A program made the translations under genes and the position numbers. A stretch of DNA of 64,000 nucleotides from a bacterium (GTDB lineage: Bacteria > Babelota > Babeliae > Babelales > UASB340): positions 67,932 to 131,931 of the forward strand of contig DAOVPV010000002.1 of the NCBI GenBank assembly GCA_030629005.1, given 5' to 3'. Shown here piece by piece: positions 10,746 through 46,037 of this stretch. Under the pieces are notes generated by a model. It did not search any database and was not told the origin of the DNA. It saw only the letters and a program-made list of their open reading frames with translations. The number at the start of each line of letters is the position of its first letter. Positions within the stretch are counted from its first letter, which is position 1.

Positions 10746-12053
10746 ATGAAAAAAATATTATTTTTACTTTTATTTTTTATAACAACTAACTCTTCTATTT
10801 ATTCAAAAAATAATTGGTCATTTTTAATTTATATGGAAGCAGACAGCCAACTTGCGCCGTGGGTATTAAAAAACTTAACAGATGTTATCAGTGCCAAATT
10901 TGACCGTGAATTTGTGGATATTTTTATTCAGTGCCATATTGTAAAAGATTTTGCTTATAGATATAAAGTTAGCAGTAATTCCTTGGTTTATGACAGTACA
11001 GTTAAATTGACATCAGATAATTCAAAAGATTTGGTTGATGCTTCTGAATGGGCTTTTAAAAATACAAATTATCAGCACTATGGAATTATTTTATGGAATC
11101 ATGGATTTGGTATTTTGGATCCTAATTATATGGAACATAGTTTAGAAGAGTTTAATTGGGAGGCAGAGCCAGATTTAGATAGTTTTGTTTGTCCCGATGG
11201 TTTATGTCCTTTAAAATTTGATTATGGATCAAAAACATTAAATGTTTCTTCCGATAATTTTCATGGGCTAAGTCATAAAGGAACTTTGTTTAGAGAACAT
11301 AATAAAACTTATTTAACAAATCAGGGTATGGTGCAAGCATTTAGATCAATAAAACAAGAAATTCTAAATAATAAAAAGATAGATATTTTAGGAACGGATT
11401 GTTGTAAAATGGCAATGTTGGAAGTGGGATATCAGATAAAAGATTCTGTAAATTATTTTATTGGTTCTCAAAATTGCGAGTTACAAGATGGTTGGAATTA
11501 CAATGATTTTTTTAGTGATTTTATTAAAAATTTAACACCAGAAGAAGTTTGCATTTCTATAGTTGATTCTTATGGACAGTATTATAAAGAGCATACAAGA
11601 GAAGAAGCGTATACACTTTCTGCCTTTGGCTTGAATAATATAGATTTATTGGTGAATAATATTAATAAGTTTGTTGATGTTTATAAAAAGTGTTTAGAAT
11701 ATAATTTTGAATTTTTTAAAAATGTTATAAAAAATGCTCGTTCAAAATCTTTGGCAATTTGCCAAGCGCCATTTTATACAGGTATAGATTCATTTTATAC
11801 CCAATTATTGTTGGAGTTAGATAGCAGTGTTAGTTATTATTATAGATTGAGAGAGTTAAGACAAATTTTAAATACAGGCAAAGAGATTGTAAAAAATATT
11901 GTTGTTGCCAATGTTACGGGAGAAAATAAAACCGAAGCAAAGGGTATATCTTTTTATTTTCCAAATAATCATATAGATAGTTCTTATTTAGAAACTCAAT
12001 TTGCAAAGGATACTTTGTGGATTGAGTTTCTAGAACAAGTTACAGCGGTGTAA
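10746..12053 (+). CDS. Secreted clostripain-like cysteine peptidase (C11-family-like)
   Basis: Signal peptide MKKILFLLLFFITTNSSIYS follows a GGAGA Shine-Dalgarno. WSFLIYMEADSQL, ILWNHGFG (candidate catalytic His) and LGTDCCKMAMLEV (candidate catalytic Cys) resemble the C11 His/Cys dyad context. The ORF-track start at 10644 is probably over-extended. Confidence 0.55.
   Translation: MKKILFLLLFFITTNSSIYSKNNWSFLIYMEADSQLAPWVLKNLTDVISAKFDREFVDIFIQCHIVKDFAYRYKVSSNSLVYDSTVKLTSDNSKDLVDASEWAFKNTNYQHYGIILWNHGFGILDPNYMEHSLEEFNWEAEPDLDSFVCPDGLCPLKFDYGSKTLNVSSDNFHGLSHKGTLFREHNKTYLTNQGMVQAFRSIKQEILNNKKIDILGTDCCKMAMLEVGYQIKDSVNYFIGSQNCELQDGWNYNDFFSDFIKNLTPEEVCISIVDSYGQYYKEHTREEAYTLSAFGLNNIDLLVNNINKFVDVYKKCLEYNFEFFKNVIKNARSKSLAICQAPFYTGIDSFYTQLLLELDSSVSYYYRLRELRQILNTGKEIVKNIVVANVTGENKTEAKGISFYFPNNHIDSSYLETQFAKDTLWIEFLEQVTAV
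11234..11255 (-). repeat. Dispersed motif copy 1 (exact), inside the C11-peptidase-like ORF
   Basis: AACATTAAATGTTTCTTCCGAT on the + strand, read in frame as TLNVSSD. The exact identity to copy 2 extends to 30 bp (to 11263). Confidence 0.9.
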
Positions 12054-12067
12054 AGTAAAAATTTGTA

Positions 12068-12664
12068 TTATAAATCGAACAGGACTCGTTTTTTAAGTTC
12101 TGGGCTTGTTAGTGTTATTTTGAGGTTGTCAGATGTATAATTTTCGTTAGGAATAAACATTACCTTATTTATAACACCATAAGGTCTGATTTTTATAACC
12201 TCATCAAGCCTGACTGTTTTTTCTCTAAAATCAGTGTTTATATTTCGGTTTGCTTCATAAGATGAAACACCTTCGATTGTTGCCCAAAGAGGACCGCCTA
12301 TAAAGAAATATTTTGCAGTTTTCCAACCGACATCTCGGTGTAATTTTCTTGCAACACTTGTTGATGGTTCTAATGGAGCTTGAATATCGTTTGGGTTTAG
12401 ATAATAAGTTTTGTTGCTTTTGTTTTTTACATAAATTTGAACAGGTGTATATCCACGTTCTATTATTTTTCTACCACCAAATATTTTACGAGCTTCTTCT
12501 TCTGTAAGAGTTTTTTTTGCAACAACTAGATTATCTTTTTCGTGAGTAGGTGCTTGTGGTGGGTACAGTTTTTTCGCTTTATATCTAGCACAGTTTGGTA
12601 GGATTGCTAACGCTACCAAGGTGAGTAATATTGATATATTTTTTTTAATTATATTTTTATTCAT
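12068..12664 (-). CDS. Hypothetical lipoprotein
   Basis: Signal peptide with lipobox-like LAILPNC. AAGGA Shine-Dalgarno. Motif copy 2 lies 9 nt upstream of the ATG. Confidence 0.5.
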   Translation of the reverse strand: MNKNIIKKNISILLTLVALAILPNCARYKAKKLYPPQAPTHEKDNLVVAKKTLTEEEARKIFGGRKIIERGYTPVQIYVKNKSNKTYYLNPNDIQAPLEPSTSVARKLHRDVGWKTAKYFFIGGPLWATIEGVSSYEANRNINTDFREKTVRLDEVIKIRPYGVINKVMFIPNENYTSDNLKITLTSPELKKRVLFDL

Positions 12665-12673
12665 GATTTCCTT

Positions 12674-12695
12674 AACATTAAATGTTTCTTCCGAT
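12674..12695 (-). repeat. Dispersed motif copy 2 (exact), 5' leader of lipoprotein gene 12068..12664
   Basis: The minus strand reads ATCGGAAGAAACATTTAATGTT-AAGGAAATC-ATG. Confidence 0.9.
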
Positions 12696-12809
12696 AATTT
12701 TCAACTGTATTGTTGCCATTTGTTTAATATTTTGGGTAGTATACTATACTAAAAAATATTGTAATACTAATTTATAGTAATATTTTTAAGTTTATAAGAT
12801 AGTTAAATT

Positions 12810-13802: not shown

Positions 13803-13810
13803 TTAAATAT

Positions 13811-15283: not shown

Positions 15284-15319
15284 TCGTTTTTTGTTTTTAG
15301 TTACAACGTATTCGTTTAG

Positions 15320-17867: not shown

Positions 17868-18773
17868 ATGAATTTTAAAAAGTATTTGTTGATTGGAGGC
17901 GTTTTATTAGCTTATAGCAATTCTGTTTTTGCAATGACGACTTCTGAGGAGTTAAGTAGCTATGTAACTGATTCTGATAGCTATGTAATTGATTCTGATA
18001 GCTCAGAAGATGAATCTTTTGATTTAAGAGAAGGTCTTAAAGAATTAAGAGATGAAGAAAGAACGTGTCTTAAAAAGGCTAAGGCCGATTTGTTAAAAAA
18101 ATTGGAATGTGAGATTAAAAATATCAGAAAAATTAATATTAGTAGCTTTCGCGATGATAAAAAATTTAATTATTGTTGCCGTGCAATTAAACGATCTATT
18201 CTTTTATTTAAACATTCTCTAACATTAAATGTTTCTTCCTATTCAACAAGAGTAGAAATAGATAAAGACAAGAAATCTCTTGGAAAACTTTGTTTAGATT
18301 TGTTTTCTTTTATAATTAAAATAAACGAGAGTTATGCAAAGAATGCGGTTGAAGAGCAAAAAGATTTGATTGAAGATTTAATGAATGATTTTTTAAACGG
18401 CGATCTTCTTATGCAAGTATATGGATTACAATTATTATATTGTTTATTAAAAGTTGATCAATCTTATTATACGAATTTTTTTACAAAAAAATTAATTGAG
18501 GAAAAGAGTTTCTTTAAATTATTTTTAATTTCTAGAGGAATAAATTTAACATCGGAAAGAAAAAAAATTAATCTTATATGCTCTAGGTTTTATCGTGCAG
18601 TTATGTTGTTTGAAGTTTTAGATGAAAGTGTGTTTTCTGAGTATTGTGACTTTGCACGTAAAGGCTTAGATTTTTGGGGTGAAAAACTAGAAGAAAAAGG
18701 TGCGGTTGATTTTGATGAGCGCAAAAATCGTAGGGAAAAATTGGAATATATTTTAGGAAGAGTTGAATTGTAA
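17868..18773 (+). CDS. Hypothetical secreted protein
   Basis: Signal peptide MNFKKYLLIGGVLLAYSNSVFA. GGAGAG Shine-Dalgarno. Contains a 21-bp tandem duplication (17958-17999) and motif copy 3. Confidence 0.45.
   Translation: MNFKKYLLIGGVLLAYSNSVFAMTTSEELSSYVTDSDSYVIDSDSSEDESFDLREGLKELRDEERTCLKKAKADLLKKLECEIKNIRKINISSFRDDKKFNYCCRAIKRSILLFKHSLTLNVSSYSTRVEIDKDKKSLGKLCLDLFSFIIKINESYAKNAVEEQKDLIEDLMNDFLNGDLLMQVYGLQLLYCLLKVDQSYYTNFFTKKLIEEKSFFKLFLISRGINLTSERKKINLICSRFYRAVMLFEVLDESVFSEYCDFARKGLDFWGEKLEEKGAVDFDERKNRREKLEYILGRVEL
18221..18241 (-). repeat. Dispersed motif copy 3 (one mismatch), inside ORF 17868..18773
   Basis: AACATTAAATGTTTCTTCCTA, read in frame as TLNVSSY. Confidence 0.85.
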
Positions 18774-18802: not shown

Positions 18803-18871
18803 AAAAATTCCTTCTTTTACTATAGATGAAATGTTTCTTGCAATTCTTCTATAGTAAAAGAAGGAATTTTT
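18803..18871. terminator. Perfect 22-bp inverted repeat between convergent genes (probable bidirectional terminator)
   Basis: AAAAATTCCTTCTTTTACTATA (18803-18824) and its exact reverse complement (18850-18871), with a 25-nt loop. The right arm lies in the last codons of the antiporter gene. T-runs on both sides. Confidence 0.6.
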
Positions 18872-20526
18872 TCTATATCTTGTATTAAATTATTTTTAAT
18901 ATCATTTAAAATCTTTTTAATTTTTTCTTCATCGCCTTTAAAAACTATATTTTTTTCAGCATTTAATATGATTTTTGTATTTTTACGTAGAGTAAGTATT
19001 TTGTTGCCTTCAGAAAGAGCAATAATAGGTTTAATAGGTTCTGTTTTTTCGACATATGATGAAATTACGTCAAAAAGGTTTCTCATCGATATACTATGAA
19101 ACGTTCCTATTTTTACTGTATATTCAGCTGGCCTTTGTTTTGCTTTTAATTGTTTAAATCCAGTTAAAAGTAATATTGGAGAAGCTATGGTTGTTAATAT
19201 TATTACAGCAACACATATAATATATTGTTCTGGTGTTAAGAGGTTTGTACCATTTAATATTGTTGCGATAACAAGACCGACTTCTCCTCGAGCGACCATT
19301 GATGAACCAAATAAAAAACTTTCCCAAAAAGACCATAACATTAAAGGTTTCTTTCGATTTTTATTTTTTCTTTTTATAAAAATATTTGTTATTGATGTAC
19401 TTATATAACATCCAACAAGCTTGGATAGAATGGCAACAATTAATATTACAATTACTTTTACCCAACCAAAATAGGTTAAGGATGTGATATTTACTTGCAT
19501 TCCTATTGAGCCTAAAAAGAGAGGTAAAAGTATTGCGTTAACAAATGGGGATATAGCTCTAACAGCCTTGTGTTTTTGATCTCCAGATTTGTGGAATAGT
19601 CCCGAGAAATACGCCCCTGTAATTCCAGCTAATCCACCAAATAGTTCTGCTAAAGAAAAATAAGAAAGCATCATTAATGTAGCAAATGAAGGTATTAGGT
19701 GAGAGAATTTATTTCTCCATAAAAATTTATTAACTGGTTTTATAAGGTAAGTGCCAATTAAAAACATGGCTAAAAATGATAAAACCATTTTTATTATAGC
19801 TATTGAAATATTTGTATTTTTACAACCAATTAAATTACAAATATTATTTCCGAATACTTTATTTTGCAAAAGAATTATGAATATGGAAAATAAAATTATA
19901 GCTAAAATATCATCTATAATTGCAGCGCCAATAGTTGCTTTGGAGGATCTGAGATCCATTTTACCGTAAGAAATGAGCATAGTAATAGGTATAGAAACGC
20001 TTGTAGCTGCAAACACTACTCCTTGGCCTATAGAAGACGCTAAATTGAAACAGTAACCATCCAAAAAATAAAAGGTTGCGGTTATCATAATTATTGGCAT
20101 TATTGCCGCAATCGCTCCAGAAAGGGTTGAAACTAACCCTACTTTAGCCATATCTTTGATATTTGTTTCGTGACCGGCTAGCCAAAGAAGATAGGAAACC
20201 GTTATCGCTGATGATATTAATAGTATAAAAAAGAGAAAAAAGTCGGTTGATGCTATATTACAAATATATTGTTTTGTTGTGTCTAAAAAACTTGTTGTAT
20301 GTTGGAAAATTTTAAGTTGTTGGATTTTTAGAAAAGATGGGCCAAGTATTATTCCTCCAATTATTTGTCCTGCAACAATTGGTAGTTTAAAAGACATTTT
20401 TAACAGTTTACCAATCATTATTGTCGTTAATAATATTATTGCTAAAAAAAGCGCAAATTTTGCTACGAATTCGGCATTTAGACCAGATTCTGTTGCCAAA
20501 GAAATACTAATAGTTTTAAGATCCAT
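18820..20526 (-). CDS. Cation:proton antiporter (Na+/H+ exchanger, CPA-type) with a C-terminal soluble domain
   Basis: About 12 hydrophobic segments. N-terminal LPIVAGQIIGGIILGPSFL is typical of the Na_H_Exchanger family. GGAGA Shine-Dalgarno. Motif copy 4 lies in the leader. Confidence 0.75.
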   Translation of the reverse strand: MDLKTISISLATESGLNAEFVAKFALFLAIILLTTIMIGKLLKMSFKLPIVAGQIIGGIILGPSFLKIQQLKIFQHTTSFLDTTKQYICNIASTDFFLFFILLISSAITVSYLLWLAGHETNIKDMAKVGLVSTLSGAIAAIMPIIMITATFYFLDGYCFNLASSIGQGVVFAATSVSIPITMLISYGKMDLRSSKATIGAAIIDDILAIILFSIFIILLQNKVFGNNICNLIGCKNTNISIAIIKMVLSFLAMFLIGTYLIKPVNKFLWRNKFSHLIPSFATLMMLSYFSLAELFGGLAGITGAYFSGLFHKSGDQKHKAVRAISPFVNAILLPLFLGSIGMQVNITSLTYFGWVKVIVILIVAILSKLVGCYISTSITNIFIKRKNKNRKKPLMLWSFWESFLFGSSMVARGEVGLVIATILNGTNLLTPEQYIICVAVIILTTIASPILLLTGFKQLKAKQRPAEYTVKIGTFHSISMRNLFDVISSYVEKTEPIKPIIALSEGNKILTLRKNTKIILNAEKNIVFKGDEEKIKKILNDIKNNLIQDIEKIPSFTIEELQETFHL

Positions 20527-20540: not shown

Positions 20541-20561
20541 AACATTAAATGTTTTTTCCGA
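20541..20561 (-). repeat. Dispersed motif copy 4 (one mismatch), 5' leader of the antiporter gene
   Basis: AACATTAAATGTTTTTTCCGA. The minus strand continues TATGGAGAAAACAA-ATG. Fills most of the 40-nt gap after the rlmN stop. Confidence 0.85.
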
Positions 20562-20566
20562 ATTAT

Positions 20567-21712: not shown

Positions 21713-22516
21713 TTACTTTTTGGCTGCTTCTTTTGCTTTTTTTAACACGTTTATAACATATGTATGCTTGTTCTTTTCAGCAATCATTAAAGCAGTCCAG
21801 CCGTCTCTCCTTTTTATGTCCAAGTCAGCTTTGCCAGCAATTAAGGCTTTTAATATATCCACATGCCCGTTCAGTGCAGCAATCATTAAAGCAGTCCAGC
21901 CGTCTTTCATTGTTGCGTCCAAGTCAGCTTTGCTTTCAATTAAGGCTATTACAACCTCCACATGCCCGTTCTGTGCAGCAAGCATTAAAGCAGTCCAGCC
22001 GTCAGAATTTTTTATGTCCAAGTCAGCTTTGCCAGCAATTAAGGCTTTTACAACCTCCACATGCCCATTGATTGCAGCAAGCCCTAAAGCAGTCCTGCCT
22101 CTGTTATCTTTTTTATTAATATTTTTTATATTAAACTTGTATGCCTCTAACCATTTATTAAAAATATCTTGCTTTAAGGCGTCAATATTTTTATAAACTC
22201 CATTTGTTAATAGTTGATTCTGCCAAATGGTTACGTTTTCAATAATAAAAGCCGAACATGAAGGTAGTGTTAAGCTACCAATAGAAAGAGAGCCATTAAT
22301 TTGAATATTCTTTAATTTTACAATAACTCTTTCAGCAATGTCACATTCAGAAAAGACCAATGGACCTTTTATAGGTAAATCGTTAATTTCAAATTTTTCA
22401 TAACTTTTCTTCGAAGATAAATCTATATTGTTAAATGATTTATTAACAAGTAAAATATTTAATATTAAGAAAGACAAAATTTTGTAATTTGTAGATTTAA
22501 ACATAAAAGACCTCAT
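21713..22516 (-). CDS. Secreted ankyrin-repeat protein (about 4 ANK repeats)
   Basis: N-terminal hydrophobic signal-like segment. Repeats of the form GWTALM.AA.NGHVEVV.ALI..KADLD. Confidence 0.9.
   Translation of the reverse strand: MRSFMFKSTNYKILSFLILNILLVNKSFNNIDLSSKKSYEKFEINDLPIKGPLVFSECDIAERVIVKLKNIQINGSLSIGSLTLPSCSAFIIENVTIWQNQLLTNGVYKNIDALKQDIFNKWLEAYKFNIKNINKKDNRGRTALGLAAINGHVEVVKALIAGKADLDIKNSDGWTALMLAAQNGHVEVVIALIESKADLDATMKDGWTALMIAALNGHVDILKALIAGKADLDIKRRDGWTALMIAEKNKHTYVINVLKKAKEAAKK
21752..22108 (-). repeat. 99-bp tandem coding repeats (ankyrin units)
   Basis: ATCATTAAAGCAGTCCAGCCGTC recurs at 21783, 21882 and (one mismatch) 21981, an exact 99-bp period. Confidence 0.9.
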
Positions 22517-22684: not shown

Positions 22685-22759
22685 GCGGGAGTAGCTCAGT
22701 GGTAGAGCATTGCCTTGCCAAGGCAAGGGTCGCGAGTTCAAATCTCGTCTCCCGCTCCA
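22685..22759 (+). tRNA. tRNA-Gly (anticodon GCC), CCA encoded
   Basis: Manual cloverleaf: acceptor GCGGGAG/CTCCCGC, D arm GCTC..GAGC, anticodon stem TTGCC/GGCAA with loop TTGCCAA, T arm GCGAG-TTCAAAT-CTCGT, 3' TCCA. Confidence 0.9.
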
Positions 22760-24933: not shown

Positions 24934-25018
24934 ATCTTATTCTTTAATTAATCTTTTTATAATAATTTGCAAAACTTTTTGTTTGGATTAAATTTTTATC
25001 AGAGAGTTTAAAAATTAT

Positions 25019-25040
25019 ATCGGAAGAAACATTTAATGTT
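25019..25040 (+). repeat. Dispersed motif copy 5 (exact), 5' leader of ORF 25058..26029; the only copy in the opposite absolute orientation
   Basis: ATCGGAAGAAACATTTAATGTT-AAAGAGGAGATTTTTTA-ATG. Confidence 0.9.
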
Positions 25041-25057
25041 AAAGAGGAGATTTTTTA

Positions 25058-26029: not shown

Positions 26030-26048
26030 AAGAACGCACGCATACAAA

Positions 26049-26078
26049 AAAAGGGGCTGCATTTTGCAGCCCCTTTTT
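26049..26078. terminator. Bidirectional rho-independent terminator
   Basis: GGGGCTGC-ATTTT-GCAGCCCC hairpin flanked by an A-run and a T-run, between convergent genes ending at 26029 (+) and 26098 (-). Confidence 0.75.
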
Positions 26079-26495: not shown

Positions 26496-28508
26496 CTAAT
26501 TCATAGATTTTATAAATTTAAAGAATTTTTCTTCATCCTTTGGAGTAAGTTTTGATTGTTCTACAGACATCCAGTCATTGTGTCTTTTTTCTGCAAATCT
26601 AGAGAATTTATTAAACCAAACACCGTGGTTATGTTCTAATTTTTTATTAATACGTTTAAAATTTTTTGGTGTTTTTATTTTGGAAAGCATTAGTGCTGAT
26701 AAATGATTAGCGTATATTTTTTTTGATAGAAGCCATTTTTGATGTATGTTAAATTCGGAGTTAAAGGTTAATAATTGTAATGGATTGTCTTTAGAGCTTA
26801 GCCCACTATAAAGTCCTGTATAAAACCAATTGGTAGATATATTTGGAGCGTAACATCCTATAATTCCATTTTCAATTTTATTATTAACTATATTTTTTAT
26901 TTTTTTACCAATATTAATAGCTTGATTTTTTAGAAATTTAAAATATAGGTTTGATTCTTTATTTTTTATTAGATCATTTATGTTTGTTCTTCCGAATTTT
27001 TTTATATTTTCTAAGTTAAAACCTGTGGTATCTAAAAAATTGCTGGAAGTTTTTCTGCAATACATTTCTAAATCTAGTACAATACCTGATATTTTTATAT
27101 TGTTGTTAACATTTGGTTCTTGCCATTTATCTAGGAATTTATTTAAAGGGTTTAAAACTTCTTGATTCCAAAAGCTATTATCTATTGGGTTTGGTATGTC
27201 TCTATATATATTTTTGTATATATCTACGGCATGTTTTTTAGGTAAATTTGGTTCATATAAGTTATTTGCGATTTCAAATCCAATTAAAATTTTAGGTCTT
27301 TTAATATTTAATTTTTGGCACGATTTGTTTAGTTTTTTTGTGAATAGGCTTATTGATTTTATAAATACATTTGTTTTTGATTTTTTCTTTGCTATTGGGC
27401 TATAGTACATCTGTGGATTTAATGTTATCCATAATGTTAATCCTGGGCTAGATTTCGTGATGCTATTTATAAGTTTATCTTGTGCATTTATGGCGGCAGA
27501 ATCTGTTTTTTCGAATATATTCATATCAAGCCAGGCTACTTTTTTAAGATGAGCTGCTTTTTTTGTTTCAATTTTGTTTCCCATATTTTTAATATGGCTT
27601 GGTAGTTTTGATATTTTGATATTTTTAAGTTTAGTGTAATCAATAACATTAAATGTTTCTTCCGATTTACTATTGTTATTATTAAAAATATATTTTAGTT
27701 CTGTTAGCATTATTAGCACATTTTTATGAATGTTTTTTCTTAATTCAAAATTTGTAGGGCAAAAATGAAAATTTTCTGATATTCCAGAAAATGATAGCAA
27801 AGAATTGCTTGTTATAAATATAGAATTATTATTTTTTAACCAATATATACCGTATGGGGTTAGTGAGTTAATGTTATCATGTTTTATAGAATTTATCGGT
27901 AAAGTTGTAAAAGAATTGGTGTTTATATTTTGAGTATTTTTGGTAATTTTATGAGTTGCTTCAGATAATGTTGTTTCGTAATTTCCTCTTTTTGATTCGA
28001 ATGGAACATTTAAATAATTATTAATAATTTTAAATTCCATTGAGTTTACTATGTTTCCTTTTTCAATAAAACCATTTACAGACATGTTTATATTTAGACA
28101 GTTGAATAATGGTGCAAATAATAAAAGCTTATTTTTTATATTATGATTGTTTATTGGTGGTAGCATAAAGCTAATTAATTTATTTTTATTTTGAGCAAAG
28201 TTTTTTAGTAATTTTAAAAATTTTATAGAGACTTGAGATCTTGTTGCGATTCCTTTTAAAAATTCGATTCCTGTAATAAAAAATATGCCATCATAGTCTG
28301 TACTATTTAAGTATTCTTCTTCATCTAAAATATCTGCAATAGATTTGTAATCTATTTTAAAACCGGCAGTATTTGCTAGTTCTACAAAACTATTATATTT
28401 GTATATTTCTGTATTATTTGTATCTATTAAAGCAATATTTATGGTTTTACAATTTGTTTTAACTGAGTATAAAAATACAAAAAATAGAAAAAATATGAAT
28501 TTTTTCAT
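26496..28508 (-). CDS. Large hypothetical secreted protein (670 aa)
   Basis: Signal peptide MKKFIFFLFFVFLYSV. No confident family assignment. Carries motif copy 6 in frame (SEETFNV). Confidence 0.5.
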   Translation of the reverse strand: MKKFIFFLFFVFLYSVKTNCKTINIALIDTNNTEIYKYNSFVELANTAGFKIDYKSIADILDEEEYLNSTDYDGIFFITGIEFLKGIATRSQVSIKFLKLLKNFAQNKNKLISFMLPPINNHNIKNKLLLFAPLFNCLNINMSVNGFIEKGNIVNSMEFKIINNYLNVPFESKRGNYETTLSEATHKITKNTQNINTNSFTTLPINSIKHDNINSLTPYGIYWLKNNNSIFITSNSLLSFSGISENFHFCPTNFELRKNIHKNVLIMLTELKYIFNNNNSKSEETFNVIDYTKLKNIKISKLPSHIKNMGNKIETKKAAHLKKVAWLDMNIFEKTDSAAINAQDKLINSITKSSPGLTLWITLNPQMYYSPIAKKKSKTNVFIKSISLFTKKLNKSCQKLNIKRPKILIGFEIANNLYEPNLPKKHAVDIYKNIYRDIPNPIDNSFWNQEVLNPLNKFLDKWQEPNVNNNIKISGIVLDLEMYCRKTSSNFLDTTGFNLENIKKFGRTNINDLIKNKESNLYFKFLKNQAINIGKKIKNIVNNKIENGIIGCYAPNISTNWFYTGLYSGLSSKDNPLQLLTFNSEFNIHQKWLLSKKIYANHLSALMLSKIKTPKNFKRINKKLEHNHGVWFNKFSRFAEKRHNDWMSVEQSKLTPKDEEKFFKFIKSMN
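27645..27666 (-). repeat. Dispersed motif copy 6 (exact), inside ORF 26496..28508
   Basis: Read in frame on the minus strand as SEETFNV at about residue 282. Confidence 0.9.
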
Positions 28509-31303: not shown

Positions 31304-31319
31304 TTATAGACTCCAACTG

Positions 31320-31865
31320 TTATTTTTTTAATCTTTTTGTTGCTAAATTAATATCAAACATTATTTTATTGTTTTCTTGTTTTTTTATAACAAGATCTTT
31401 TATATATACTATTTCTTTTGTACCTACTTCTTCCAGTATTTTTACAAGATTTTCTGTTGTTTGATCTTTAAATGTTGCTTTTAAAGTAACTTCGTCAAAT
31501 TTATTTGTACCACTAAGTTCTTGTATTACCGGTTCCCAATCAGGTTCTGGCGGAATAGATTGCTCTTTGCATAGTTGTTCAAAATATATATTAAGATCGA
31601 AATCTTTTTCTTGTTCAAGTAATTTTTGCAGTTTTTCTTCAGCTATTAACATTTTTTCATTTGTTTTAATAAGTTCAAATGTTTTTGCAGATAATGTTTT
31701 GGTGTTTTTTATTTGCATAATAAGGTCTTCGTTTTTGGAATAAAATAGAAAGCTAATTGAAAACGCAGCAATAACTATAAATAGAATTGTTAACTTTAAA
31801 TTTTTTTCGAATTCCTTTTTTGATAAACTTTCTATTTTATTGGTAAAATCGTATATTATTTTCAT
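31320..31865 (-). CDS. PilO/GspM-like bitopic inner-membrane assembly protein
   Basis: Single TM (LTILFIVIAAFSISFLFY), a coiled-coil segment, then a small alpha/beta C-domain. Its position between the pilMN-like gene and a secretin supports the call, which rests on context and architecture only. ATG 31865 is preferred over 31871. Confidence 0.45.
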   Translation of the reverse strand: MKIIYDFTNKIESLSKKEFEKNLKLTILFIVIAAFSISFLFYSKNEDLIMQIKNTKTLSAKTFELIKTNEKMLIAEEKLQKLLEQEKDFDLNIYFEQLCKEQSIPPEPDWEPVIQELSGTNKFDEVTLKATFKDQTTENLVKILEEVGTKEIVYIKDLVIKKQENNKIMFDINLATKRLKK

Positions 31866-31866
31866 A

Positions 31867-31888
31867 AACATTAAATGCTTCTTCCGAT
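31867..31888 (-). repeat. Dispersed motif copy 7 (one mismatch), in the intercistronic gap between the pilMN-like stop and the pilO-like start
   Basis: AACATTAAATGCTTCTTCCGAT occupies 22 nt between the stop at 31891 and ATG 31865. Confidence 0.85.
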
Positions 31889-31890
31889 TT

Positions 31891-33558: not shown

Positions 33559-36377
33559 GACAGCCTCCTTCTAGATTTTAAATTTTTAAGGCTGTTCTTT
33601 ATATTATATTTTTTATTTATACTTGTTTTAGTGTCGTTTATTTTTTCTTTTGTTGGATTATCTTCTGGAAAATTTTCGATGTCATCATCTCTGTCTGTAT
33701 GAACTCTATAATAAGGATCATTTTTTATATCTACTGTTGTTGGTTGGAATTTAGCGCTAGCAAAATCAGTTATTTTTTTACTGTAATTTGAGCTTTTTAT
33801 ATCAAAGAACCAAGAATCGATAGGGTCTTTGATTTTTTGATAACTTCCTATTCTTTCCATTGTGTCTTTAGCTTTATGTAGTTTCATTCTTGTGTAAAGA
33901 TTTACACCGGGAGTTGTTCGTGGTTTTATTATTGTTGGAGATATAAATATAAAGATATAATTTTTTAGCACAGAGACTTGTTTTCTTTTAAAAAACCATC
34001 CTAGTAATGGTATATCCCCTAATATTGGAGTTTTTTGAAAATTTTCGGTTGTTGATGTTTTTACAAAACCTCCAAGGGCTATAACTTGTCCATCTGCAAC
34101 AGTTACATCTGTTTTTATTTTTTTAATCTCTTTACTACCTTTGGTTGCGTTTATGAATTCATCTATATTAATTTCCAGAGTTAGCCTTATTATGCCATCA
34201 ACATTTATTTGTGGCGTGATATCTAATGTTGTTAATGCTTTTACTTCTTTATATCCTTGAAACCCTGTTGGATCAAAAAGGCCTGTTGGAGCACCCTCTT
34301 CCATAACAACGTTTTGAGTATTACCGTATTCCAAGTGACCTTTTGTTTTATTTGCTACTGTCATAAATGGTTGTGCTAAGATACTTGTATGAGATTGAGT
34401 ATTAAGCGCTTTAAATACTCCCCAAAGATTGGAGTCTTTTCCAAATGATATTATTGTTGAACCAAGGCCGCCGCTTACAGCGTTAATCATATTTCCTAAA
34501 AGATTTCGAGGATCTTCTGTACTGTAAACTATTGGACCATCGCCAGTAGCAGATTGATAATTTATGTTGCTACCAATTTGGCCTGATTTTTTATTTCTAA
34601 TACTGCCACCCAATTCTTTTCTGTCGTCAATTGCGATTGTTACAAATAAACTTTCTAGAGCGACTTGGGGTTGAGGTTTGTCTAAATCTTTTATTGTTTT
34701 TTTTAATAAGTTCCAATCTTGTTTATCTGTGGAAGAAACAATTAATCTATTTCCGTCTTTATCTACTTCAAATTTCATTGCTTTAAAATATTTTACACCA
34801 TCCCTTACTGCACCATATTTTGCAACTTGTTCGCCTATTGCAGAAACATCGGTTACGCTTTCTAATATTGTTTTTATCTGTTCTGCATCTGTATGTTGTA
34901 ATTCATAGATATGTAATGGGGATATTGTTTCTTTTAACTCCGTATCTAGATGTTCTGTTATAAATTCTACAATTTTATCGATAGATTGTTTTGTGCCTAA
35001 TAGCACTAGGGAGTTAGATCGTTCTATGACTATCATTCTTGTTGTTGGAGAAAAGTATTGTAAGTTTGCTTCTGCTTGTTTTCCCATTAATCTCGCAAGA
35101 GGACTTTGGTTTTCGGTTTTATTCATTAAACTTTCAAAAAGTGCTTTTACATCAGTTGCATTTATTCTTTTAAGTTTTACAACGGTAACGGTTTCTTGTA
35201 AGCCTGTTTGGTCTAGAGCATGAATCACCTTCATTGCAGATTTTATATTATAAGATTTGTCTGTAATTATAAGTCCATTAACTTCTGGGTATGGTATTAT
35301 ATTATGTTCTGGGCTTAACATGCTATTTAAAATGGGCTGTATACTTGTAACATCGACATTTTCTAGAAATGTTACATATCTTATATTTTCATCGCTGTCT
35401 GGTAATGTTTCTGCTGGAACGTTTATATATGCGGGTAATGGTTGTTTTGTTTTATTTGTTTTTGGCATAACTACATAAACATCGCCTATTTTGATTATGC
35501 TAAATCCTGACATTTCTAATACAGTTAAAAATACATTCCAGGCTTGTTCTATACTTAAGGCCTCTCTAATATTGAGAGATATTTTTACACCTTCTATGGC
35601 TTTATCAGGAATAAGATTTAAGTTTTTTATATCAGCGATATAAGCTATAAAATTAGATAATTCTGCGTTTTCAAAGTTAAGGTAAATATCTTTTTTTTCT
35701 GTGGTTTCTTTGGTTGTTAAATCTTTTTCTTGAGAATCTATTTCATCTGGAATATTAGCTATTTGTTTTTTTATTGTTTGTATGGAATCTGCTTTTTCTT
35801 CGCCTATTGCTTCTTCGGCTATTTCTTCTTTGTCTTCAGCTATTTCTTCTTTGTCTGAGGCTGTTTCTTCTTCTTCGTCTGAGGCTGTTTCTTCTTTGTC
35901 TTCGGCTATTTCTTCTTCTTCGTCTGAGGTTATTTCTTCTTTGTCTTCGGCTATTTCTTCTTCTTCGTCTGAGGTTATTTCTTCTTCGGCTTCGTCTAAG
36001 GTTGTTTCTTCTTCGACTGTGGCCGTTTCTTCTTCGTCTTCAACATCATCTTTTTCAGCTTCTATTATTGGTTTTTCAGGTTCTTGTTTTTTTGTGGCTT
36101 CTTCTTTGTCTTTGTTGTTGTTAGATATTTTAGATTGTTTTGGGATTTTATTTTGATTTTTATTATTAGTTGTTTCTGTTTTTGTTATAGTTTTTTCTTT
36201 GTTCCTGTTTTCTTTGTTACCAGAGGGTGTTTTAGTTTCTAAAGATATTTTTTTATTTATATTTTCTTCTTTATTTGGTGGTATTGCTGTGGTTGCATTT
36301 TTTTTTATTAGCTCTTGAGAGAATGTTGTTCCTGAGGTTAAGAACAAAAATAAAATTAAAAAATTTTTTTTATTCAT
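33555..36377 (-). CDS. Secretin, GspD/PilQ family (secretin 1), with an N-terminal acidic repeat region
   Basis: Signal peptide, D/E-rich repeats, N0-like YLNFENAELSNFIAYIADIKNLNLIP...VKISL, and the secretin signature TPILGDIPLLGWFFKRK...NYIFIFISPTII. 940 aa. Confidence 0.85.
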   Translation of the reverse strand: MNKKNFLILFLFLTSGTTFSQELIKKNATTAIPPNKEENINKKISLETKTPSGNKENRNKEKTITKTETTNNKNQNKIPKQSKISNNNKDKEEATKKQEPEKPIIEAEKDDVEDEEETATVEEETTLDEAEEEITSDEEEEIAEDKEEITSDEEEEIAEDKEETASDEEEETASDKEEIAEDKEEIAEEAIGEEKADSIQTIKKQIANIPDEIDSQEKDLTTKETTEKKDIYLNFENAELSNFIAYIADIKNLNLIPDKAIEGVKISLNIREALSIEQAWNVFLTVLEMSGFSIIKIGDVYVVMPKTNKTKQPLPAYINVPAETLPDSDENIRYVTFLENVDVTSIQPILNSMLSPEHNIIPYPEVNGLIITDKSYNIKSAMKVIHALDQTGLQETVTVVKLKRINATDVKALFESLMNKTENQSPLARLMGKQAEANLQYFSPTTRMIVIERSNSLVLLGTKQSIDKIVEFITEHLDTELKETISPLHIYELQHTDAEQIKTILESVTDVSAIGEQVAKYGAVRDGVKYFKAMKFEVDKDGNRLIVSSTDKQDWNLLKKTIKDLDKPQPQVALESLFVTIAIDDRKELGGSIRNKKSGQIGSNINYQSATGDGPIVYSTEDPRNLLGNMINAVSGGLGSTIISFGKDSNLWGVFKALNTQSHTSILAQPFMTVANKTKGHLEYGNTQNVVMEEGAPTGLFDPTGFQGYKEVKALTTLDITPQINVDGIIRLTLEINIDEFINATKGSKEIKKIKTDVTVADGQVIALGGFVKTSTTENFQKTPILGDIPLLGWFFKRKQVSVLKNYIFIFISPTIIKPRTTPGVNLYTRMKLHKAKDTMERIGSYQKIKDPIDSWFFDIKSSNYSKKITDFASAKFQPTTVDIKNDPYYRVHTDRDDDIENFPEDNPTKEKINDTKTSINKKYNIKNSLKNLKSRRRLS
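35808..35987 (-). repeat. 45-bp tandem coding repeat (about 4 units) encoding EEITSDEEEEIAEDK-type acidic units
   Basis: Protein reads EEITSDEEEEIAEDK EEITSDEEEEIAEDK EETASDEEEETASDK EEIAEDKEEIAEE. The DNA shows the matching period-45 repetition. Confidence 0.85.
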
Positions 36378-36399
36378 ATTTATTCCATTTATTAATTAT

Positions 36400-37542
36400 T
36401 TACCGTATTCTTCGGTTCATGGATCTTGCATTCATGCTTTGTAATATTCGTTTTTTTATATCTGTAATTATGTCTTCTTGTTTTGGTGTTCTATGTTGTT
36501 TTTCAAATTTTTTTATTTGTTTTGCTCTCTCTTGTTCCTTGCTTTGTTTTAGCATTTCACTTGTTGATGGAGCTTGTTCTTCTGATTCTGGTTCAGCAGG
36601 GCTTAAGAATATTTTTTTTATGGGTTTTTCTATTTTTTCTAATTTATAGTTTATTGTTATAAGATTGTTATTTCTTTTAAGGACAAGTTTAATTGTATTT
36701 CCAATCTTTGATTTAGTTATTTTATCAAAAATTTTTATTCTATTTTTATCTTGAGTTGTTTTTATATCACATATGTTTGTAAAAATATCCCCTTTTTTTA
36801 ATCCGGTTATATTTACAATTTCACTGTCGCATGAATTTCCGATTTTAAGTCCAATGAGTTTTCCATTTTCGTAAGCAGGAATTAAGGAATATTTTTCTAG
36901 AGCTTGTCCTAGAGATTTTACTCTTTTTATAAAAGCATCTGGATCAACTATAAAATTAATGTTGTCTATTTTTTTTATGGTGTATTCCCAAAAATTTGGC
37001 GTGGTTCTTCTTGTTGCATTTTCTTCTCTTAACAAATAGATTTCTTGTTGACCATTTGCTCTTAAAACAATGACTCTGTTTTTAGATATTTTTATTATTT
37101 GTCCATCTTTAAATAAATTACCAAGACGATATATTGATTCTTTATTTGTTTCATCCAAAATTAAAGCAATACTTTTTTCTTCGTTTAGAGATGAAATTAT
37201 CCCACTTAACTTAAGATTTAGTGAATCTATAAATGTAGGTTTTGCTGGTTCTGGGGGTATTGCTATTTGATGTGGTTCATATTCTGGGATAGGTGTTATT
37301 AAATCTTTTTTTGTAGGCTTAATTTTTGGTGTTGCGACATAGGTGTCAAACAAATCCTGTGTGTATATTTTTTCGATATCTAAAGGTTTTTGTTGAATTT
37401 CTTTTTCTTCAGGTCGTTTTTTTTCTATTAATTGTTTTTTTAACAGAACTCTTTTTTTTTCTAATAAATAAATATTTAATACTAGTGTAGTAATAAATAT
37501 TACTAAAAGAGAACTATTTAAAAGCCATAAAGATTGTTTCAT
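36400..37542 (-). CDS. GspC-like protein (TM, HR/PilP-like domain, PDZ-like domain)
   Basis: N-terminal TM. LKLSGIISSLNEEKSIALILDE...YRLGNLFKDGQIIKISKNRVIVLRANGQQEIYL fits the secretin-binding HR domain pattern. A PDZ-like GLKIGN...ITGLKKGDIF follows. Located directly upstream of a secretin. Confidence 0.6.
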   Translation of the reverse strand: MKQSLWLLNSSLLVIFITTLVLNIYLLEKKRVLLKKQLIEKKRPEEKEIQQKPLDIEKIYTQDLFDTYVATPKIKPTKKDLITPIPEYEPHQIAIPPEPAKPTFIDSLNLKLSGIISSLNEEKSIALILDETNKESIYRLGNLFKDGQIIKISKNRVIVLRANGQQEIYLLREENATRRTTPNFWEYTIKKIDNINFIVDPDAFIKRVKSLGQALEKYSLIPAYENGKLIGLKIGNSCDSEIVNITGLKKGDIFTNICDIKTTQDKNRIKIFDKITKSKIGNTIKLVLKRNNNLITINYKLEKIEKPIKKIFLSPAEPESEEQAPSTSEMLKQSKEQERAKQIKKFEKQHRTPKQEDIITDIKKRILQSMNARSMNRRIR

Positions 37543-37644
37543 AACTAAATCACCCTTCTGCAGAGAATGAAGATAATTTTCTTAATAGAGTTTTGTCAAG
37601 TAAATGTTCAAGAATTACTTTTTACCAATACTTTCCTAGACGCT

Positions 37645-38943
37645 TTAATTTTTAATGTTTATATTTAATTTTAATAGTTTATCTTTTAGCTGTACAGAGG
37701 TTAAATTTAAGTTATTAGAAGCTTGTTTAATATCGTATTTGTTTTTTTTTAGAAAGTATAATAAAAATTTTTTTTCAAAGTTGTTCATAGCTTCTGTTAA
37801 TGATTTAAAACTCGTAAAAGATTGCTCTTCTATCATTTCTATTTGGTTTTCTTCTAAATATTCAAAAATTTCAGCTTCACTTATTATTCCATTTTCATTT
37901 TTAAATGTCTTAATTACATATTGTATTAGTTTTTTTAATTCGCGTATATTTCCAAACCAATTTTTATTTCTTAATATTCGAATTGCTCTTGAATCAAAAA
38001 TGATATTTTTTTTGAGTTTGATATTTTCTGTTTTAATAAAGCTTTCGCACATTAATGGAATATCATATCGCCTTTTGTTTAAGGATGGTATTTCTAGAGG
38101 GGTAACATTAATTGTATGAAAAAGGACGCTATTGAATTTTTGTTTTTTTACTAATGACAAAAGAGGTTCTGTGCTAGACACAATTAATCTTTTGTTTTTG
38201 TCTTGAATCTTTTCTATGTTTATTAACAAGTTGCGTTGGCACTCTTTTGATATTTTATTTATGTATTTTATATAAATAATACCATTTTGCTTAGAATAAA
38301 ATTTGTTTGTTTTTTTTATTATATCCTGATCTTTTAGTTTTAAGCAGTTTATTGTAATTAGTTCATATTTTTTTAGAGAACCTTTTTGATGTATATATTT
38401 TACAAATAAGCTTTTACCTGTGCCGTGTTCTCCATATATTATTAATGGATAATCTAAGTTTAATATAAGATTTACTTGTTGTAGTAGTTCAAGGAAAAGA
38501 TAGCTATTTCCAATAATTCCAAGTTTATTTAGTAAGAACTTATCGGACTCTTGTTTTGTTTTATTTTGGATTGCTTGTTTTTCATTTAAAAAATTTATTT
38601 TTTTTAAAATTACATTTAGATTTAATGGTTTTTCGATAAAATCTAAGGCGCCTTTTTTTAAAGATTCTATCGCTATTGGAATGTTGCCAAAACCAGAAAT
38701 CATAAAGACTTTTTGAGCTGGAAATTCTTTTTTTATTTGTTCTAGTAGAGCCATTCCATTACAATTAGGCATAAAGATGTCTAAAAAAACTAAATCTGGA
38801 ATAAGTTTTCCTATATAATCTATTGTTTTATTCCCATCGCTTAGTGTTTCTACCTGATAACCTTCATCTTCTAAAATTTCTTTAAGGGTTTTTAATATAA
38901 ATGTTTCATCATCAATAACTAAAATTAATGGTTTGTGTTTCAT
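37645..38943 (-). CDS. NtrC-family response regulator (REC, degenerate AAA+, Fis-type HTH)
   Basis: The REC domain is intact (LVIDDE, FLDIFMP, ISGFG, EKP). Walker A GEHGTGKS is present, but the ESELFGHEKGAFTGA segment is missing and IYIKYI replaces the Walker B LFLDEI. C-terminal HTH (IKQASNNLNLTSVQLKDKL). Confidence 0.75.
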   Translation of the reverse strand: MKHKPLILVIDDETFILKTLKEILEDEGYQVETLSDGNKTIDYIGKLIPDLVFLDIFMPNCNGMALLEQIKKEFPAQKVFMISGFGNIPIAIESLKKGALDFIEKPLNLNVILKKINFLNEKQAIQNKTKQESDKFLLNKLGIIGNSYLFLELLQQVNLILNLDYPLIIYGEHGTGKSLFVKYIHQKGSLKKYELITINCLKLKDQDIIKKTNKFYSKQNGIIYIKYINKISKECQRNLLINIEKIQDKNKRLIVSSTEPLLSLVKKQKFNSVLFHTINVTPLEIPSLNKRRYDIPLMCESFIKTENIKLKKNIIFDSRAIRILRNKNWFGNIRELKKLIQYVIKTFKNENGIISEAEIFEYLEENQIEMIEEQSFTSFKSLTEAMNNFEKKFLLYFLKKNKYDIKQASNNLNLTSVQLKDKLLKLNINIKN

Positions 38944-40575: not shown

Positions 40576-40591
40576 CAATTAATTTAATATT

Positions 40592-41701: not shown

Positions 41702-41857
41702 TTATTATAATATCTCCTTTTTTTTACAAGCAGTTTTTTTTATGATTTAATTTCATAATAACTTATTTAATGATTTTTCCAAGTTTATGTTGATTAAATC
41801 TTGACGAAATTTTAATTTAAAGTATGATCAGATCTTGCTTTAAATGGGATTTTAAAA

Positions 41858-43279: not shown

Positions 43280-43292
43280 TGGAGAAATTTTT

Positions 43293-44330: not shown

Positions 44331-44349
44331 AGTAAAGAAATTTTTATAA

Positions 44350-44428
44350 CTAGATTCTGGAACAAGTTTGGGATGACAAAGTGGAACGAACACTTGTCCT
44401 GTCATCCTAAATTTGTTTCAGGATCTAG
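44350..44428. repeat. Nested palindromic element, copy A (degenerate), about 79 bp
   Basis: Arms CTAGATTCTGGAACAAGTTTGGGATGACA (44350-44378) and TGTCATCCTAAATTTGTTTCAGGATCTAG (44400-44428) are imperfect reverse complements. Related to copies B and C. Confidence 0.75.
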
Positions 44429-44485
44429 TCCTAATTTTAACGTATAAATTTTTGCAGCTTATAATTAAACTCTAAGAGATTAAAT

Positions 44486-45316
44486 ATGAAGATAAAGGTT
44501 TTAATATTCTTTTTAGCAATATTTTCTTTTGGTTTTGCTTTTGCTAACAAAAAAAAATCGAGAATAACAGAAAATACCGTTGCAAACGCAGAAACTATTG
44601 ATAATCAAACAAAAAAAGATATTAGTTTAAAAACTGAAAACATAGAGTACAAATTTGTTGTGTTCGATATTAGTAATTGTTTTTGGCAAAAAACTTTATA
44701 TGAAATTTTTATGTCTTTAAAAAAGAGAATAAAGATACCAATTAAGGGTTATTTTGATCTTTTACAATGTGGTGTTTCTTATGCCTTAGGTAATTTGGAT
44801 GCAAAAAGAGGTTATCAGACTTTTTTTAAATATATGAATAATATGTCTAAAGATGAAATAAAGGACAAGTGTAGTTTTATTTGGGAACAAGATTGTAAAA
44901 ATTTTATTTATAAAGATGTTGCAGATTTGTTCAAAACATACAAAAAACAGGGGCTTAAGCTTATAATGGTAGATGCTGGTATTTCTGAATTGTATGAAGA
45001 TCTTTTAAACGTTTATGATTTTGATTATGTTTTTACAGCAAATTTAGAATATAAAGATGGCAAGTCTACTGGGAAACTTTTGGGAGAGCCTTGTTCTGGG
45101 ATTCATAAATATAATGTTATAAAAAAACTTATAGAAGAAGATTTGGGTGGATTTTTAAAAGAGACTATTTTTTATGCTAATAGCAATAACGATATTCCAT
45201 TATTAGAACATGTTGGAAAGCCGATTGCTGTAAATCCCAACAAAAAGTTAAAGCATAAAGCCTTAAGATCTAAATGGGAGATTTTAAATTTTACAGAAGT
45301 AATAAATGAAGAATAA
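44486..45316 (+). CDS. HAD-superfamily hydrolase, subfamily IB (SerB-like), with signal peptide
   Basis: FVVFDISNCFW (motif I-like region), a DAG region, and C-terminal YANSNNDIPLLEHVGKPIAVNPNKKL typical of HAD-IB. N-terminal signal-like MKIKVLIFFLAIFSFGFAFA. Confidence 0.6.
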   Translation: MKIKVLIFFLAIFSFGFAFANKKKSRITENTVANAETIDNQTKKDISLKTENIEYKFVVFDISNCFWQKTLYEIFMSLKKRIKIPIKGYFDLLQCGVSYALGNLDAKRGYQTFFKYMNNMSKDEIKDKCSFIWEQDCKNFIYKDVADLFKTYKKQGLKLIMVDAGISELYEDLLNVYDFDYVFTANLEYKDGKSTGKLLGEPCSGIHKYNVIKKLIEEDLGGFLKETIFYANSNNDIPLLEHVGKPIAVNPNKKLKHKALRSKWEILNFTEVINEE

Positions 45317-45351
45317 CTAGTTTTAGTCATACGATATAATTGAATTTTTAT

Positions 45352-45434
45352 TACTGGATCCTGAAACGAGTTCAGGATGACTGTGGGTATATAAATCATC
45401 TCATTTGTCGTCCTGAACTTGTTTCAGGATCCAG
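45352..45434. repeat. Nested palindromic element, copy B, 83 bp
   Basis: Arms ACTGGATCCTGAAACGAGTTCAGGATGAC (45352-45380) and GTCGTCCTGAACTTGTTTCAGGATCCAGT (45406-45434). Each arm contains its own ATCCTGAA-N5-TTCAGGAT hairpin. Confidence 0.85.
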
Positions 45435-45488
45435 TTTTATAAATCATATATCACGCTGTAAGCTGCGGGTAATCTAACCAAAATTGAA

Positions 45489-46037
45489 TTAAACAGTAGG
45501 ATTATCAGCTTTTTCTTTTTTTAATTTTTGTACTGTTTTTGTTGCAAATTTTTTAATTTTTTCTTTTTTTAATGTCCCTGTTATTAAAATTCCTGTGCTT
45601 GCAGCTATAATAGAAATTGTTTTTCCATTGTTTTTTACTGTTTTTAAAGACCAGTTAATTGCTTTTTCTAAATTAAGTTTTTGTTTTTGTATGAATTTTG
45701 AGAGTTTGTATTTTGCAAGTTTTTTAAAGAGATGGTATGTACTGATTGTAATACTTATTTTTTCATCTGTTTCTTTTGGCATATATCCATGAAGTTTAAG
45801 TTCATTTGCTACTTCTTCTGGTTTTTCATTTTGCAGAGGTTCTAATATATCTAGAGCTTTTGTTATTGCATCTTCATATCCAATTTTTTCTTGTGTTATC
45901 GTTTCTAAAATTGCTTTATTAAAATACTCTATTCTTGTTTTTACATCAACATTAAATGTTTCTTCCGATGTATTTTGAGCGTAGTTTGGATTGGTTGTTA
46001 ACGTTAATATTGTGATAAACATAAAAAAATTCTTCAT
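45489..46037 (-). CDS. Hypothetical secreted protein
   Basis: Signal peptide MKNFFMFITILTLTTNPNYA. Motif copy 8 sits in frame immediately after it (SEETFNV). Confidence 0.45.
   Translation of the reverse strand: MKNFFMFITILTLTTNPNYAQNTSEETFNVDVKTRIEYFNKAILETITQEKIGYEDAITKALDILEPLQNEKPEEVANELKLHGYMPKETDEKISITISTYHLFKKLAKYKLSKFIQKQKLNLEKAINWSLKTVKNNGKTISIIAASTGILITGTLKKEKIKKFATKTVQKLKKEKADNPTV
45948..45969 (-). repeat. Dispersed motif copy 8 (exact), inside ORF 45489..46037
   Basis: Read in frame as SEETFNV (residues 24-30), right after the predicted signal peptide. Confidence 0.9.

Follow-up and report, generated by a model that had tools for sequence, protein, structure and literature searches.

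A 21-nt repeat in a Candidatus Dependentiae genome is probably an ultra-small mobile insertion

How does one 21-nt sequence come to lie, almost letter for letter the same, in the leaders of some genes and in frame within the coding sequence of others? The question is raised by a stretch of 64,000 nt (contig DAOVPV010000002.1, positions 67,932 to 131,931; hereafter the window; ~28% G+C) from the metagenome-assembled genome (MAG) of an uncultured intracellular bacterium, assigned through its RlmN homologues to Candidatus Dependentiae/Babeliales (TM6). A first-pass annotation of the window had noticed eight copies of a palindrome-containing motif and listed four explanations together: an operator, an RNA-level leader element, an uptake-signal-like sequence, and a miniature selfish element tolerated in frame. 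Our comparisons support the last of these, since the motif is a 21-nt insertion that is missing from orthologues and is read in three frames, and leave the other three less likely. We conclude that the 21-mer TCGGAAGAAACATTTAATGTT is probably an ultra-small, non-autonomous mobile insertion. The analysis covered ~77 kb of DNA, comprising the window, 7.5 kb to its left (locus L003) and 5.3 kb to its right (locus L002), with the adjoining sequence taken from an ENA scaffold and Logan contigs. The same copies are present in the ENA scaffold, which differs from the window by 14 single-nucleotide polymorphisms in 13.5 kb, and in the Logan contigs; both sources probably derive from the same sample as the window.

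The evidence for insertion comes from relatives that carry the same genes without the motif, including L005, a syntenic relative whose RlmN is 64% identical to that of the window, and L101, the closest relative. At the junction between the pilM-N and pilO genes, the window has exactly 21 extra bases when compared to L005 and L101, with flanks that are otherwise conserved. The empty site of L101 reads GAATAAAAA followed directly by TATGAAAATAATATA (start TATG), and the filled site of the window reads GAATAAAAA, then TCGGAAGAAGCATTTAATGTT, then TATGAAAATAATATA. This comparison of empty and filled sites defines the element as a 21-mer, and there is neither target-site duplication nor loss of flanking bases at this junction. 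Protein alignments reveal the same pattern within coding sequences. The segment RKKPLML of the Na+/H+ exchanger is a 7-residue insertion absent from 11 of 11 closest homologues and matched by a 7-codon gap in L005. Similarly, SEETFNV in a 670-aa protein is a 7-residue insertion that is absent from L005 and from all 11 homologues compared, the closest of which (P0346) shares 64% identity. The alignment of the P-type ATPase with the structure of the Listeria Ca2+-ATPase LMCA1 (9euq_A) has a 7-residue gap exactly at IRKKHLM, and the peptidase C11 that holds the copy at 11234 is ~8 residues longer than its three closest homologues. Because the outgroups lack the motif, the change is an insertion in the lineage of the window. 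Judging from these alignments, the motif is a clean 21-nt (7-codon) insertion wherever a comparison is possible, with ~8 codons in the case of peptidase C11. A decayed orthologous copy was also considered in the spacer between RlmN and the exchanger gene of L005, and was unsupported by the alignment.

The element occurs 13 times in the ~77 kb, nine times in the window and four times in the adjoining DNA, a density of ~1 copy per 5.9 kb. The 22-mer AACATTAAATGTTTCTTCCGAT matched nine sites of the window at 3 or fewer mismatches and none in 100 dinucleotide-preserving shuffles, which substantiates the earlier claim that its recurrence is beyond chance. All eight coordinates originally reported are correct, five of them being exact copies (11234, 12674, 25019 on the minus strand, 27645 and 45948), and so are the distances of 1, 9, 14 and 17 nt to start codons and the readings SEETFNV and TLNVSS; a ninth copy, at 19337, had been overlooked. 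The copies are listed here by the strand that reads AACATT...CGAT, and a copy is called sense when TCGG...GTT lies on the sense strand of the associated gene.

11234..11255, plus strand: exact copy within the peptidase C11 gene 10746-12053 (plus), antisense, read TLNVSSD.
12674..12695, plus strand: exact copy 9 nt 5' of start 12664 of a 198-aa lipoprotein-like gene (minus), sense.
18221..18242, plus strand: copy with 1 mismatch within the gene of a 301-aa signal-peptide protein, 17868-18773 (plus), antisense, read TLNVSSY.
19337..19358, plus strand: copy with 2 mismatches within the Na+/H+ exchanger gene 18820-20526 (minus), sense, read RKKPLML.
20541..20562, plus strand: copy with 2 mismatches over 22 nt and 1 over 21, between the RlmN stop and the Na+/H+ exchanger start (20526), 14 nt 5' of that start, sense.
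25019..25040, minus strand: exact copy 17 nt 5' of start 25058 of a 323-aa secreted protein gene (plus), sense, with GAGGAG after it.
27645..27666, plus strand: exact copy within the gene of the 670-aa signal-peptide protein, 26496-28508 (minus), sense, read SEETFNV.
31867..31888, plus strand: copy with 1 mismatch that fills the gap from the pilM-N stop to the pilO-like start (31865), 1 nt upstream of the latter, sense.
45948..45969, plus strand: exact copy within the gene of a 182-aa signal-peptide protein, 45489-46037 (minus), sense, read SEETFNV.
L003:2968-2989: exact copy preceding a second peptidase C11 gene by 35 nt; this copy and the next lie 4.4-4.5 kb to the left of the window.
L003:3111-3132: exact copy within the second peptidase C11 gene, left of the window.
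L002:6512: copy within the P-type ATPase gene, 3.6-4.8 kb right of the window (together with the following copy).
L002:7723: copy ~108 nt upstream of the P-type ATPase gene, carrying GGAGG for GGAAG.

The seven internal copies are read as SEETFNV three times, as RKKHLM-like peptides twice and as TLNVSSD twice, and both orientations are used. The use of three frames and both orientations within genes establishes that the unit exists at the nucleotide level, and a protein-level motif is ruled out. One further candidate, a KKHLK match at the C-terminus of GatB, belongs to conserved protein sequence and is no copy of the element. Four of the six frames of the 21-mer are free of stop codons, and 21 is divisible by three, which is how the element can survive in frame as seven extra residues. 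Surviving copies are located in variable loops, right after signal peptides (the copy at 45948 encodes residues 24-30, immediately after the signal peptide), or in 5' leaders next to a Shine-Dalgarno sequence, as with the Shine-Dalgarno-like AAGGA directly after the copy at 12674. A sense copy itself holds a Shine-Dalgarno-like GGAAG followed 9 nt on by its own ATG. The upstream open reading frames (ORFs) that begin in leader copies are 5-9 codons long and terminate either at the main start codon itself (ATGA at 12664; TAATG in L005) or slightly downstream, by a few bases, and that of the leader copy at 31865-31888 is in frame with pilO.

The sequence of the element is remarkably uniform. Divergence from the consensus amounts to 7 of 273 positions (2.6%) over the 13 copies, always within positions 2-12, and TTTAATGTT does not vary at all. 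Conservation is as strong in the asymmetric tail as in the 13-bp perfect palindrome that the motif contains. The ends (TCGG.../...TGTT) do not form terminal inverted repeats, and the 22nd conserved base is an A of the target that precedes the element in 11 of 13 copies (P = 5e-4). When the window was searched at 5 or fewer mismatches, a single extra and doubtful site (18823) was recovered and no intermediate degenerate copies, and the palindrome alone or the tail alone as query yielded no convincing extra copies in the window. Copies are consequently all-or-none. Their flanks within the window are unrelated, save for 8 further nt common to 11234 and 12674. The first-pass annotation had proposed that the motif would reduce to an ordinary mobile-element remnant if every copy sat inside a longer shared element; none was found around the copies. 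Note that the 8 bases AATTTTCA that follow both copies (11256-11263 and 12696-12703) extend them to a 30-nt direct repeat 1,440 bp apart, which could reflect flank transfer between copies or a longer sub-variant of the element.

The element is also found beyond this genome. A search of relatives, suggested at the outset, recovered it at the DNA level in L005 and L081 and at the peptide level in two proteins, P0037 and P0358. The L005 copy (position 778) has 2 mismatches, lies at a non-orthologous site 24 nt upstream of a secretin gene, and comes from a different sequencing run. The copy of L081, a Dependentiae MAG locus, has 1 mismatch and is read TLNVSSD within a 969-aa ORF. Element peptides were sought among 495 collected homologues. 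P0037, an RlmN of another lineage that is 58% identical to that of the window, holds SEETFNV at residue 171 as a clean 7-residue insertion absent from 11 relatives, so the element can land in a cytoplasmic housekeeping gene; it also holds RKKCLML at residue 8, where the N-terminus is extended, probably by read-through of an upstream copy. P0358, a member of the 670-aa family (40% identity) from another lineage, has TLNVSSD at residue 110, again a clean 7-residue insertion that 11 relatives lack. The sequences available from relatives L006, L098, L099 and L101 (6.5-21 kb each) contained no copy and no other over-represented 12-mer or 14-mer. An exact 22-mer scan of genome, JGI metagenome and viral collections gave no match. 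Among the matches listed in an 18-mer genome scan, L081 was the only one from Dependentiae and the rest were chance singletons from unrelated taxa, and a degenerate 22-mer metagenome scan gave six ambiguous singletons. On these sequences, the element family appears patchy over diverged Dependentiae and occupies differing sites.

The distribution of copies is far from even with respect to genes. Six of 13 are non-coding, against 8.7% non-coding sequence (P = 4e-4), and all six lie upstream of starts. Those between co-directional genes, with the L005 copy included, are sense in five of five cases. Along the DNA, the largest copy-free gap (21.6 kb) is ordinary for 13 copies in 77 kb (P ~0.27), and five of the 12 gaps between neighbouring copies measure 0.14-1.44 kb. 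The first-pass annotation had remarked that no copy occurs at 1-11 kb or 46-64 kb; this is true of the window, but it marks no boundary. With four copies just outside, the apparent cluster at 11-46 kb is not a real domain, and a regulon reading that leans on this restriction loses its support. Three genes (the second peptidase C11, the Na+/H+ exchanger and the P-type ATPase) have one copy in the leader and another within the gene, both sense, and the two peptides of P0037 follow the same pattern. Such pairs, like the short gaps, could result from local hopping; the pairs could also be functional. Neither pattern is significant on these numbers. With regard to replication, third-codon GC skew over the 77 kb is +0.31 in plus-strand genes and -0.29 in minus-strand genes, indicating that the plus strand is leading throughout and that the region is replicated in one direction. 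AACATT...CGA lies on this leading strand in 10 of 13 copies. The counts of 10 of 13 by leading strand and 11 of 13 by gene sense do not separate replication from transcription as the source of the orientation bias. In the same 77 kb, 56% of coding sequence is on the lagging strand.

If the 21-mer is mobile, a trans-acting enzyme would copy and paste it, recognizing the short hairpin-forming palindrome together with the 8-nt tail. Selection would then remove harmful insertions and leave survivors enriched in intergenic leaders and in fast-evolving envelope and secreted proteins. The orientation bias would arise from a step that distinguishes the strands, whether the element inserts into non-template or lagging-strand-template DNA or selection acts on the mRNA. 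Given mobility, a single-strand-DNA mechanism of the HUH/Y1 type, like that of IS200/IS605 and REP/RAYT, is our leading though doubtful candidate, proposed by analogy from the lack of inverted ends and target duplication, the hairpin beside a conserved tail, the minimal target preference and the strand bias. We also entertain, as an unlikely extension, a dedicated and hitherto undescribed writing system conserved over Dependentiae, in which an HUH-type or RNA-templated enzyme would take one unvarying 21-nt unit from a conserved master copy and paste it into single-stranded DNA exposed at the transcribed 5' ends of genes or at the replication fork. Such a system would account for the sense-strand bias, the clustering at start codons, the upstream-plus-internal pairs, and the near-identity of copies in lineages with RlmN identities of only ~60%. 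Co-option may have turned some of the leader copies into a plug-in module for the leaders of envelope genes, with a Shine-Dalgarno-like sequence and an upstream ORF that begins with AUG.

A number of findings count against a mobile insertion and must be weighed with it. No transposase, HUH, recombinase or reverse-transcriptase gene was detected in the 77 kb (Pfam searches of window ORFs and precomputed annotations), and no presence/absence polymorphism was seen between strains. As DNA the element forms only a weak hairpin, with a 5-bp A/T-rich stem and a 3-nt loop (-1.6 to -1.9 kcal/mol). The evidence from P0037 and P0358 is at the peptide level only, and for a purely selfish repeat it is unusual to be conserved in sequence over lineages whose RlmN proteins share only 58-64% identity. 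Three biases are possible signs of function: in eight of 13 copies a start codon is no more than 110 nt away (P = 1e-3), 11 of 13 are in sense orientation (P = 0.022), and 10 of 10 associated genes score as envelope or membrane genes by a crude hydrophobicity test, against 36 of 68 overall (P = 9e-4). The latter result upholds the link to signal-peptide and membrane genes that had been proposed for the window, with the cytoplasmic RlmN P0037 standing beside it in another lineage; the link can largely be explained by tolerance to insertion.

One candidate function is that of an operator. Recognition of the motif by a dimeric regulator of an envelope/secretome regulon, perhaps carried on or co-opted from the mobile 21-mer, would make sense of the 13-bp perfect palindrome, of the six of 13 copies that precede starts by no more than ~110 nt (in four cases with a Shine-Dalgarno sequence directly after the copy), and of the envelope genes themselves. 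Furthermore, the upstream and internal copies paired in three genes, and alike in P0037, could support DNA looping. We nevertheless consider an operator improbable. Seven of 13 copies sit inside genes in both orientations, at distances of as much as 1.2 kb from the start, a promoter/terminator scan revealed no consistent promoter formed by the motif, and the tail is as conserved as the palindrome in sites that are all-or-none rather than graded. At every site open to comparison, the element is a recent insertion that relatives with the same genes lack, and another lineage carries the element in RlmN. The element could still, by analogy with some MITEs (miniature transposable elements with inverted repeats), carry a binding site. 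A role at the RNA level (AUCGGAAGAAACAUUUAAUGUU), as target of a small RNA or RNase or as a translation module in which GGAAG precedes an upstream ORF with its own AUG, we regard as very unlikely. It would fit the 11 of 13 sense copies and the unanimous orientation of the five unambiguous intergenic copies, that of L005 included. Among the seven leader copies examined for upstream ORFs (six in this genome and L005:778), the ATG of the element begins, in five, a short ORF that either shares the frame of the main start or terminates at that start or immediately beyond it; at such distances, however, overlap with the main start is nearly unavoidable, and GGAAG is a weak Shine-Dalgarno sequence. 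In addition, internal copies occupy arbitrary positions and two are antisense. The RNA fold of the element has no stable structure (minimum free energy ~0), in agreement with the initial judgement that the palindrome cannot fold as RNA, and an Rfam scan returned tRNA only, with no match for the motif.

The spread of a short exact motif over genes and spacers, tolerated in several frames and present in related lineages, also recalls the DNA uptake sequences (DUS) of Neisseria and the uptake signal sequences (USS) of Pasteurellaceae, which would have been enriched here through the pilus/secretin and ComEC machinery nearby. USS and DUS arise by mutation and biased uptake, have a 9-12-nt core, and are not inserted as a unit. 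The genes for ComEC (L003:1791-2924), two secretins and PilM/N/O-like proteins are indeed present nearby, but they demonstrate machinery only. Copies of the 21-mer arise as 21-nt insertions and not by point mutation of existing sequence, and conservation covers the full 21 nt instead of a core of 9-12 nt. Known USS and DUS occur at ~1 per kb, about five times more densely than the ~1 per 5.9 kb found here. Moreover, the copies are biased in orientation (one strand holds 10 of 13, and 11 of 13 follow the sense of the gene), they do not form inverted pairs acting as terminators, and the host lineage is obligately intracellular. We rate uptake as a slender prospect, below a role in RNA; like the operator, it might have a secondary part to play but leaves unexplained the origin of identical 21-mers as insertions. 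A technical artefact, in the form of an adapter, linker or assembly error, deserves mention because the reverse complement of the element holds ATCGGAAGA, which resembles part of the Illumina adapter GATCGGAAGAGC. We give it practically no credence: the copies are internal to long contigs and in frame in three assemblies, the remainder of the motif has no adapter match, a related copy comes from a different sequencing run (L005), and peptides of the element occur in proteins of other lineages.

How does a mobile 21-mer compare with repeats already known? To our knowledge, the small dispersed repeats (SDRs) of cyanobacteria are the only comparable case of mobile DNA so small, and their mechanism is unsolved. 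SDRs are reportedly dispersed repeats of 21-27 nt that appear as insertions with respect to orthologous sequence. They are like the element (21 nt, 13 copies in 77 kb) in size, in being insertions relative to orthologues, and in being far smaller than MITEs. However, they belong to Nostocaceae, another phylum, and are unrelated in sequence, so that the Dependentiae element is at most an analogue and not a member; it also differs in being often in frame within protein genes and in 5' leaders and in being conserved over diverged lineages. The SDRs of Nostocaceae (Elhai et al. 2008) are cited in PMC3116915, PMC5861425 and PMC3733652. The REP/REPIN elements, mobilized by RAYT (TnpA-REP) HUH transposases (PMC3116915, PMC3733652, PMC6006769), are similar in being short (20-40 bp), in combining a palindrome with a one-sided conserved tail, in lacking terminal inverted repeats and target duplication, and in having some copies within ORFs, where REPs are indeed known (PMC3733652). 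They offer a plausible model of how single-strand mobilization might proceed. The REP stem-loop is tagged at one end by GTAG or CGTC (PMC3733652), whereas the element has no such tag and a stem of only 5 A/T-rich bp. REPs are mostly extragenic, downstream of genes and often arranged in inverted doublets; by contrast, seven of 13 copies of the element are in coding sequence and none form inverted pairs or REPINs, and there is no RAYT gene in the 77 kb examined.

Rickettsia palindromic elements (RPEs) are known to insert in frame into functional protein genes (PMC10969869, PMC3733652). They too are selfish repeats of an obligate intracellular bacterium that add an in-frame peptide segment, but they are ~100-150 bp in length, with long palindromic structures, and belong to Rickettsia, whereas the element of Dependentiae has 21 bp and adds 7 residues. 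MITEs are non-autonomous insertions beside genes that can alter the expression of neighbours, and those with regulatory side-effects include the Correia/NEMIS elements of Neisseria (PMC10969869). A MITE is 50-500 bp long, ends in terminal inverted repeats and is flanked by target-site duplications, none of which applies to the element. The element is therefore not a member of the SDR, REP or RPE groups, the ones nearest to it in behaviour, and full-text literature searches returned no account of a repeat like it from Dependentiae. As a further precedent, membrane-protein genes are known to be enriched for small variable segments carried in frame (PMC2884548).

As a probable mobile insertion, the 21-mer would be among the smallest mobile-looking repeats seen in bacteria, where mobile DNA so small is barely documented, and the evidence for insertion is clean: sites are known to the base both empty and filled, and the target is not duplicated. 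The element suggests a way for proteins to acquire loop segments of 7 residues and for genes to acquire new leader sequence. Since the genome is small and reduced, the phylum obligately intracellular and the 21-mer present in several lineages, the hunt for the enzyme should be tractable by comparative genomics. Annotators of Dependentiae MAGs should be aware that SEETFNV, RKKHLM and TLNVSSD, however often these peptides recur, do not represent protein motifs.

Several features of the surrounding DNA complement this description. The peptidase C11 gene at 10746-12053 lies between RuvA and the 198-aa gene and is absent from that position in L005 (L005:17848-17946), and in L098 and L099 its closest homologues have an OPT transporter gene and topA on either side; these differing neighbours imply that the gene has moved. 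The copy at 25019 forms with its flanks (25014-25042, minus strand) the best sigma-70-like match in 11-31 kb (TTAACA, 17 nt, TATAAT; 11 of 12 positions), which points away from the downstream gene; the other copies form no such match. The pilM-N/pilO junction is part of a minus-strand cluster at 28703-38943 with two secretin genes (866 and 940 aa), a PilM-PilN-like fusion (555 aa), a PilO-like gene, a gene similar to component C of type II secretion systems (T2SS-C), and a response regulator with a sigma-54 activator domain. The ComEC gene lies 5 kb to the left of the window. Three in-frame tandem repeats are unrelated to the 21-mer: an array of 21/24/45-nt units in the N-terminal part of the 940-aa secretin (35812-36041), three 99-nt ankyrin repeat units (21778-22099), and 2.2 copies of a 21-nt unit at 96% identity (17957-18003) in the 301-aa protein that holds the copy at 18221. 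A tRNA is located at 22685-22756. Finally, a strong 14-bp GC-rich hairpin at 26048-26078, with runs of A and T on either side, separates the convergent genes of the 323-aa protein and a thioredoxin and, from its sequence, looks like a bidirectional terminator.

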